From Escherichia coli (GTDB lineage: Bacteria; Pseudomonadota; Gammaproteobacteria; Enterobacterales; Enterobacteriaceae), in the NCBI RefSeq assembly GCF_030384885.1, contig NZ_CP128613.1: DNA of 64,000 bases; one strand, 5' to 3'. The stretch's first letter is position 1, and every line of letters starts with the position of its first letter. The position numbers and the translations under genes were made by a program. Positions 28,858 through 29,292 of the stretch are shown piece by piece. Below the pieces are notes generated by a model, which saw nothing but the letters and a program-made list of their open reading frames with translations, did not search any database and was not told the DNA's origin.

Positions 28858-29292
28858 TTACGGCAGGACTTTCTTAAGCAAATGCTCAAGTGTTGCCACT
28901 TCGTCCGCCGTCAGGTTTTTTGTTAATTCTTGATGCAGGTCCTGGCCAACTAATTGATGGCATTGTTCACATATTGCCGCGCCGCTGGTGGTAAGTTTTA
29001 CCAGTACGCCGCGCTTATCATTCGGGTTCGGCAACCTTTCCACCCAGCCTTTACAAACCAGGCGATCCAGCATACGGGTCAGCGCTCCCAGGTCGACCGA
29101 CAACACTTTTTTCAGTTCAACCGGAGTAATACACGACGCGCAGCGGATAGAGCAGAGCACCTTAAACTGTGCCGCGGTAATATCCAGCGGAGACAGATAC
29201 TCGTTAAGCAGGCGATCTTTCTTCTGATTAACCATATGGATTAAGCGACCCAATGGAATAATTTCATTGAACAGATCGCTGGTACTTTTCAC
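28858..29292 (-). CDS. marR: MarR repressor of the mar operon (144 aa, GTG start)
   Basis: [51 protein letters not shown]... ; start codon GTG at 29290-29292. Confidence 0.95.

Follow-up and report, generated by a model that had tools for sequence, protein, structure and literature searches.

MarR is the repressor of the marRAB operon. As a dimer it binds two palindromes of the form TTGCC-N-GGGCAA in marO, and it is released either by salicylate-type ligands or through the oxidation or glutathionylation of Cys80. The closest known counterpart is the protein of Escherichia coli K-12 (NP_416047.4), 144 residues long and translated from a GTG start, for which several structures have been solved (1JGS, 3VOD, 3VOE, 5H3R, 4JBA, 3VB2). 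A form of MarR with the replacements C47S, C51S, C54S, C108S and C111S still binds DNA, represses, and senses oxidants via Cys80 (PMC12017873). K-12 MarR has Ala53, Gly103 and Tyr137; the form common outside K-12 (e.g., WP_000843419.1 of strain Nissle 1917) has Ala53, Ser103 and His137. The corresponding substitutions, usually written as G103S and Y137H, showed no association with the levofloxacin MIC (PMC4317672), and repressor activity has been stated to be unaffected by them (PMC11753663), yet at least one genome paper still described them as de-repressing or resistance-associated (PMC11504656). At position 53, the substitution A53E was reported in highly ciprofloxacin-resistant clinical isolates that also carried gyrA S83L and D87N (PMC5177599), while no mention of A53S was found in the searchable literature.

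In the present analysis, the marR gene contained in a 64,000-nucleotide stretch of DNA deposited as E. coli (hereafter the window) was compared with these forms. Its product carries Ser53, Ser103 and His137. The gene is very probably functional and the normal form of marR in Escherichia cryptic clade I, a lineage that is sister to E. coli sensu stricto.

The marRAB Locus of the Window

The marR open reading frame of the window (Table 1) is intact, without truncation, frameshift or deletion in the ORF listing. Its product scored 319.3 bits against the NCBIfam equivalog NF008565 (cut-off 240), with residues 1-144 aligned to profile positions 1-144, and residues 38-96 form a Pfam PF01047 domain (66.9 bits; cut-off 24.6). 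Length and start codon are those of K-12 MarR, and the six solved structures listed above were all full-length matches (E about 1e-92). The reference was the marR gene of MG1655 (NC_000913.3, 1619120-1619554, within the region 1615000-1623000). Alignment with this gene revealed 97.9% DNA identity, with six synonymous differences (nt 186, 189, 210, 237, 276, and 360) and exactly three amino acid differences, A53S, G103S and Y137H, leaving 141 of the 144 residues identical. A preliminary description of this DNA had named the same three residues as departures from K-12, position 53 with the least certainty; the pairwise alignment confirmed that none of them is identical to K-12 and that the difference at position 53 is real, K-12 having alanine there. 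Chance is no issue for these differences, because they are deterministic and recur in many independent assemblies.

Table 1. Coordinates of the mar locus in the window and of the three codons at which its MarR differs from that of K-12.
Feature	Position	Strand	Basis and remarks
marB	28205..28423	minus	72 aa; NF007508, 138 bits (cut-off 87)
marA, activator repressed by MarR	28455..28838	minus	127 aa; NF008564, 294 bits (cut-off 202)
marR, repressor gene of marRAB	28858..29292	minus	144 aa, GTG start; ORF call and family profiles
marR codon 137, CAT (His); K-12 TAT (Tyr)	28882..28884	minus	Gene nt 409; alignment
marR codon 103, AGC (Ser); K-12 GGC (Gly)	28984..28986	minus	Gene nt 307; alignment
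marR codon 53, TCG (Ser); K-12 GCG (Ala)	29134..29136	minus	Gene nt 157; alignment
marC-marR intergenic region (marO/promoter)	29293..29503	minus	Alignment with K-12
Operator palindrome TTGCCAGGGCAA, just upstream of the marR start	29298..29309	minus	Identical to K-12
Operator palindrome TTGCCTGGGCAA, between -35 and -10	29333..29344	minus	Identical to K-12
marC, divergently transcribed neighbour	29504..30169	plus	2 aa differences from K-12

As in K-12, marR, marA and marB are divergent from marC, and two operator palindromes lie between the two transcription units. The pattern TTGCCNGGGCAA has two matches in the window (29298-29309 and 29333-29344), against 0.08 expected by chance; we take the latter to be MarR site I and the former site II of the published operator. 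The intergenic region differs from that of K-12 at five positions, each lying upstream of the -35 hexamer; from TTGACT (29350-29355) onwards to the GTG start, TATTAT (29327-29332) included, the two sequences agree fully. These hexamers are presumably the -35 and -10 elements of the published marO, and the stretch 29372-29391, likewise identical to K-12 in the intergenic alignment, its marbox. Between marA and its K-12 counterpart there are two synonymous nucleotide differences and no amino acid difference. Divergence within the operon is greatest for marB (92.2% nucleotide identity), in which 8 of 72 residues depart from K-12, chiefly in the region of the signal peptide. The spacer between marR and marA is 19 nt long in the window (28839-28857) and in K-12; it is 20 nt long in six contigs of clade-I type and in CP057254.1.

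Frequency and Polarity of Ser103 and His137

Allele counts were obtained by megablast with 55-nt probes centred on each SNP against 5,426 complete E. coli genomes. Only genomes with the variant allele can match such a probe, because every possible 28-nt seed includes the variant base. The Ser103 allele was found in 4,222 genomes and the His137 allele in 4,220 (about 78% in each case), and a control probe for the Gly103 allele of K-12 matched 1,190; the counts for Ser103 and Gly103 together give 5,412, in line with the 5,415 genomes of the set that possess marR. The list of genomes with the K-12 state was visibly enriched in laboratory derivatives of K-12 and B, and the natural frequency of Gly103/Tyr137 is thus probably below 22%.

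The polarity of the changes was examined by scanning a single representative genome of each species; this covered the best 80 MarR orthologues, among which there were no loci named E. fergusonii, E. marmotae or E. ruysiae. In every other Escherichia representative among the matches listed, namely E. whittamii, E. albertii, Escherichia sp. E1V33, Escherichia sp. MOD1-EC7003 and a divergent 'E. coli' representative, codons 53, 103 and 137 read GCG, AGC and CAT. Given their presence in all of the other Escherichia representatives sampled, Ser103 and His137 are the ancestral state of the genus, with S103G and H137Y acquired in the lineage of K-12, which holds the derived state at both positions. 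The designation 'G103S/Y137H' is accordingly an artefact of K-12 having been taken as the reference.

The preliminary description had presented G103S and Y137H as common natural variants and not Mar mutations, which is borne out both by the genome counts and by the literature cited above. Its further suggestion, that the two residues are often a feature of phylogroup B2 strains and of use in typing, fared less well. Nissle 1917, which we take to be a B2 strain, does have Ser103 and His137, but this is uninformative as most other genomes share both. O157:H7 carries Ser103, and the pair is shared by this serotype and by the other Escherichia. As the majority and ancestral state, Ser103 and His137 are nearly useless for lineage typing. 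The MarR of Nissle 1917 is one residue off that of the window, having Ala53, and the two genes differ at nt 157, 207, 210 and 237.

Some of the records encountered in these comparisons call for separate mention. The marR of NZ_CP172017.1 ('EcN_Sk'), a genome of the size of Nissle, is 100% identical to that of K-12 at the nucleotide level, whereas the gene of Nissle 1917 is 7 nt off K-12; possible explanations are a segment derived from K-12, engineering of the strain, or a fault in assembly or labelling. Contig SMXE01000224.1 ('MAG: Caldithrix sp.') is 100% identical to K-12 over 3.4 kb around marR and represents E. coli contamination. Five marR matches in complete E. coli assemblies were located on plasmids, not chromosomes.

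Assignment of the Window to Escherichia Cryptic Clade I

With the SNP-centred probe, the Ser53 allele was detected in only 18 of the 5,426 complete genomes, and the identical 435-nt marR allele in 16. One of the latter is that of strain 2013C-4282 (NZ_CP027579.1), the marR DNA of which is identical to that of the window and the product of which is WP_000843424.1; the MarR protein of the window is hence already catalogued, and its allele is an ordinary one. At least 1,000 public contigs encode exactly this protein, which is indexed in 2,785 blocks. The preliminary description's doubt about the K-12 residue at position 53 had raised the idea that Ser53 is peculiar to a single assembly, as a private mutation or through sequencing error. 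Nothing was found in favour of this idea, and with the 16 identical alleles, the 18 genomes with Ser53, the public contigs and the existence of a RefSeq accession for the protein all standing against it, its probability is next to nil. Sequencing error as the source of Ser53 was ruled out by recurrence in independent genomes and contigs.

Over positions 19000-40000, the window is 100.0% identical to E. coli 2013C-4282. The other 17 genomes with Ser53 are exactly the next 17 matches over these 21 kb, with 98.2-99.0% identity, and the roughly 5,400 remaining genomes show at most 96.5%. Collinearity with 2013C-4282 extends from 5804 to 58126 (99.964% identity over 52 kb). As the two are collinear over this part only, with both ends of the window (1-5803 and 58127-64000) differing, the source of the window is a close relative of 2013C-4282 and not that record itself. 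Another assembly, GCA_054584535.1, is 100.00% identical to the window over 8 kb. When positions 42000-64000 were compared with complete genomes, clade-I genomes came low in the coverage-weighted ranking, this part including the variable right end (58127-64000) that is absent from 2013C-4282. Identity to K-12 is 94.7% in the 8 kb surrounding marR, and the window and K-12 are about equally distant from other Escherichia species, as expected of sister groups.

Strain 2013C-4282 (OG9:H45, human stool, stx1a) was classified as a Shiga toxin-producing E. coli (STEC) belonging to Escherichia cryptic clade I, as was EC42405 to the same clade (Okuno et al., 2023; PMC10100065). Of the remaining Ser53 strain names sought in the supplement of that study, many of which belong to genomes later than the paper, only 2020CK-00188 was found in the accessible part of the supplement, where it is likewise given as cryptic clade I (Okuno et al., 2023). 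Taken together, the 64 kb of linked sequence and the three relatives classified in the literature argue firmly that the source locus is that of Escherichia cryptic clade I. The lineage reading drawn from the preliminary description would instead make the three residues marks of a non-K-12, probably B2/ExPEC lineage, useful together for typing. The Ser103 and His137 of Nissle 1917 agree with this reading, but that strain has Ala53 and not Ser53, and the pair is present in about 78% of genomes, O157:H7 included, and in other Escherichia species. Set against an identity of 99.96-100% to a clade-I STEC, no more than 96.5% to genomes outside the Ser53 group over the same 21 kb, and 94.7% to K-12 over 8 kb, an origin from B2/ExPEC is highly improbable.

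Several differences between the window and 2013C-4282 were noted. The left end of the window (1-5803) has the native mlc-ynfK-clcB-dmsD-ynfH-ynfG arrangement, and in 2013C-4282 prophage genes interrupt ynfG. Within this end, clcB (2309-3624, minus strand) apparently consists of two overlapping open reading frames (308 and 185 aa), suggesting a frameshift around their junction, due to either a pseudogene or an assembly error; intact ClcB has 418 residues. The genes rspA and dcp are frameshifted in the RefSeq annotation of 2013C-4282, and the window, which differs by 1-nt indels there (14609 and 21254), probably has both genes intact. Additional indels of 3 and 9 nt are located at 40933 and 50475-50483, respectively. 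Near the right end, beside hipBA (hipA, 56657-58036), the segment 60045-63552 (plus strand) looks like an integrated filamentous (inovirus-like) prophage, with open reading frames of 364 aa, 105 aa and 464 aa, the last with a glycine-rich linker, and a small membrane ORF. In matching genomes, the 364-aa and 464-aa frames are annotated as 'phage/plasmid replication protein, II/X family' and 'attachment protein', respectively. This arrangement was found in 18 genomes of E. coli sensu stricto (93.8-97.3% identity) and is absent from 2013C-4282.

Ser53 as a Marker of the Lineage

Of the set of residues that had been put forward for lineage typing, only Ser53 proved to be lineage-informative: in the RefSeq complete set, the codon 53 TCG separates the 18 genomes of clade-I type from the 5,408 others, and no clade-I-type allele without Ser53 occurred within it. 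The only alleles within 1 nt of that of the window belong to two strains with an added E109K, in which Ser53 is retained. These are the Korean clade-I-type strains MFDS1022581 (NZ_CP169399.1) and MFDS1019527, in which E109K (nt 325 G>A) is found on top of Ser53, Ser103 and His137. Glu109 is invariant in an alignment of 42 orthologues, and E109K is a more promising candidate functional change of MarR than anything that the window contains.

Outside the complete genomes, 9 of 10 independent contigs encoding the exact protein had flanks of clade-I type, 98.1-100% identical to the window and about 94.5% to K-12. The exception, CP057254.1, encodes the identical Ser53/Ser103/His137 protein in E. coli sensu stricto, its flanks being 97.6% identical to K-12 and 94.3% to the window. 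Its marR has the same nt 157 G>T on a synonymous background of its own, which departs from the clade-I allele at six sites. Import of a clade-I allele by recombination was considered for CP057254.1 and rejected on account of these six synonymous differences and the flanks of sensu-stricto type; the better explanation is an independent mutation or conversion over a very short tract. In E. coli sensu stricto, then, Ser53 arose by mutation or by such conversion on one or more occasions. NZ_CP057254.1 is not in the RefSeq complete-genome collection that was searched, and the probe count of 18 therefore stands. On a K-12 background, Ser53 was seen on a single 1.3-kb contig.

Polarized by the GCG codon of the other Escherichia, Ser53 (GCG>TCG) is derived in the lineage of the window and near-diagnostic, though not absolute, for cryptic clade I. 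It is the sole amino acid replacement of MarR on the clade-I branch, and it has been retained across the diversity of the clade; its fixation was seen in 18 of 18 available complete genomes, among which none of the further complete clade-I genomes named by Okuno et al. (2023), 89-3506, 3057, 10290, KS-P079 and HH-P024, was recognized.

Expected Function of the Clade-I MarR

The tolerance of the three positions was assessed with a variability ranking of 144 columns from 69 distinct enterobacterial MarR sequences, of which 77 columns were invariant. Positions 103, 53 and 137 ranked as the third, fourth and sixth most variable, respectively. Position 53 lies between the invariant Cys51 and Cys54, and among the 69 proteins it is occupied by V, G, A, T, S, E, M or Q. 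The residues C51, C54, A70, T72, R77, C80, R86 and R94 are all found in the window protein and are invariant across the 42 orthologues; Ala70, Thr72, Arg77 and Arg86 are presumably the salicylate sites of 1JGS, and Arg94 is in the wing. In an AlphaFold (AF2) model of MarR (mean pLDDT 77.6), the winged helix comprises the helices 57-64 and 68-81 and the strands 84-88 and 96-100. Residue 53 is placed in the alpha2-alpha3 loop, residue 103 at the first turn (N-terminus) of alpha5 after the wing, and residue 137 in alpha6, the C-terminal helix, so that all three lie outside both the recognition helix (68-81) and the wing of the model. Being tolerant positions outside the recognition helix, the wing and Cys80, none of the three residues is expected to de-repress marRAB.

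A search of marR and marO for lesions of the Mar phenotype revealed no truncation, frameshift, deletion, substitution of a conserved DNA-binding or dimerisation residue, or change of the operator. The dN/dS of marR was between 0.02 and 0.15 in all comparisons, and Ser53 has been kept throughout a clade whose members diverge by up to 1.8%. This persistence, the conservation pattern and the place of residue 53 in the structure lead us to infer that Ser53 is functionally neutral, and the strain should have wild-type mar regulation.

Alternatively, A53S may subtly weaken or retune MarR in its operator affinity or its response to ligands or oxidants, with the basal marRAB set-point and the intrinsic susceptibility of clade I slightly altered. 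The replacement is the only one on the clade-I branch and is kept in all 18 complete genomes of clade-I type, and the same G>T recurs on a sensu-stricto haplotype unrelated to theirs, which might point to selection instead of drift. Residue 53 is, moreover, in a loop leading into the helix-turn-helix and between two cysteines; however, the change of both cysteines to serine leaves a working repressor and sensor, and oxidant sensing involves only Cys80 (PMC12017873). The A53E variant of the ciprofloxacin-resistant isolates concerns the same position on the same Ser103/His137 background, but it introduces glutamate, a non-conservative change, into clinical isolates of E. coli sensu stricto with gyrA mutations (PMC5177599), whereas the change of alanine to serine is conservative. 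Position 53 is also among the most variable of the protein, with eight residues in orthologues including serine itself, the operator and MarA are unchanged, and a fixed loss of function is unlikely given the strong purifying selection on marR. A slight retuning of this kind is therefore considered unlikely. Slightly less probable still is the fuller proposal that Ser53 is clade-defining and retunes MarR, that the basal mar/AcrAB set-point of clade I differs from that of E. coli sensu stricto, and that the reappearance of Ser53 reflects selection.

Implications

The value of these observations is practical, not conceptual, and the understanding of how MarR works is unchanged by them. Caution is warranted in that Ser53, Ser103 and His137 are not to be called resistance mutations; 'G103S/Y137H' in particular should never be scored as such, the anomaly being the K-12 reference. 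Escherichia cryptic clade I is routinely mislabelled as E. coli, includes both STEC and ETEC strains, and is hard to distinguish from that species routinely. The PCR marker gene specific to the clade, EsCd1-10290c_1484, is located on a genomic island outside the window (Okuno et al., 2023; PMC10100065). With the proviso of at least one exception in E. coli sensu stricto, nt 157 G>T of marR could serve as a cheap screening SNP for this lineage.
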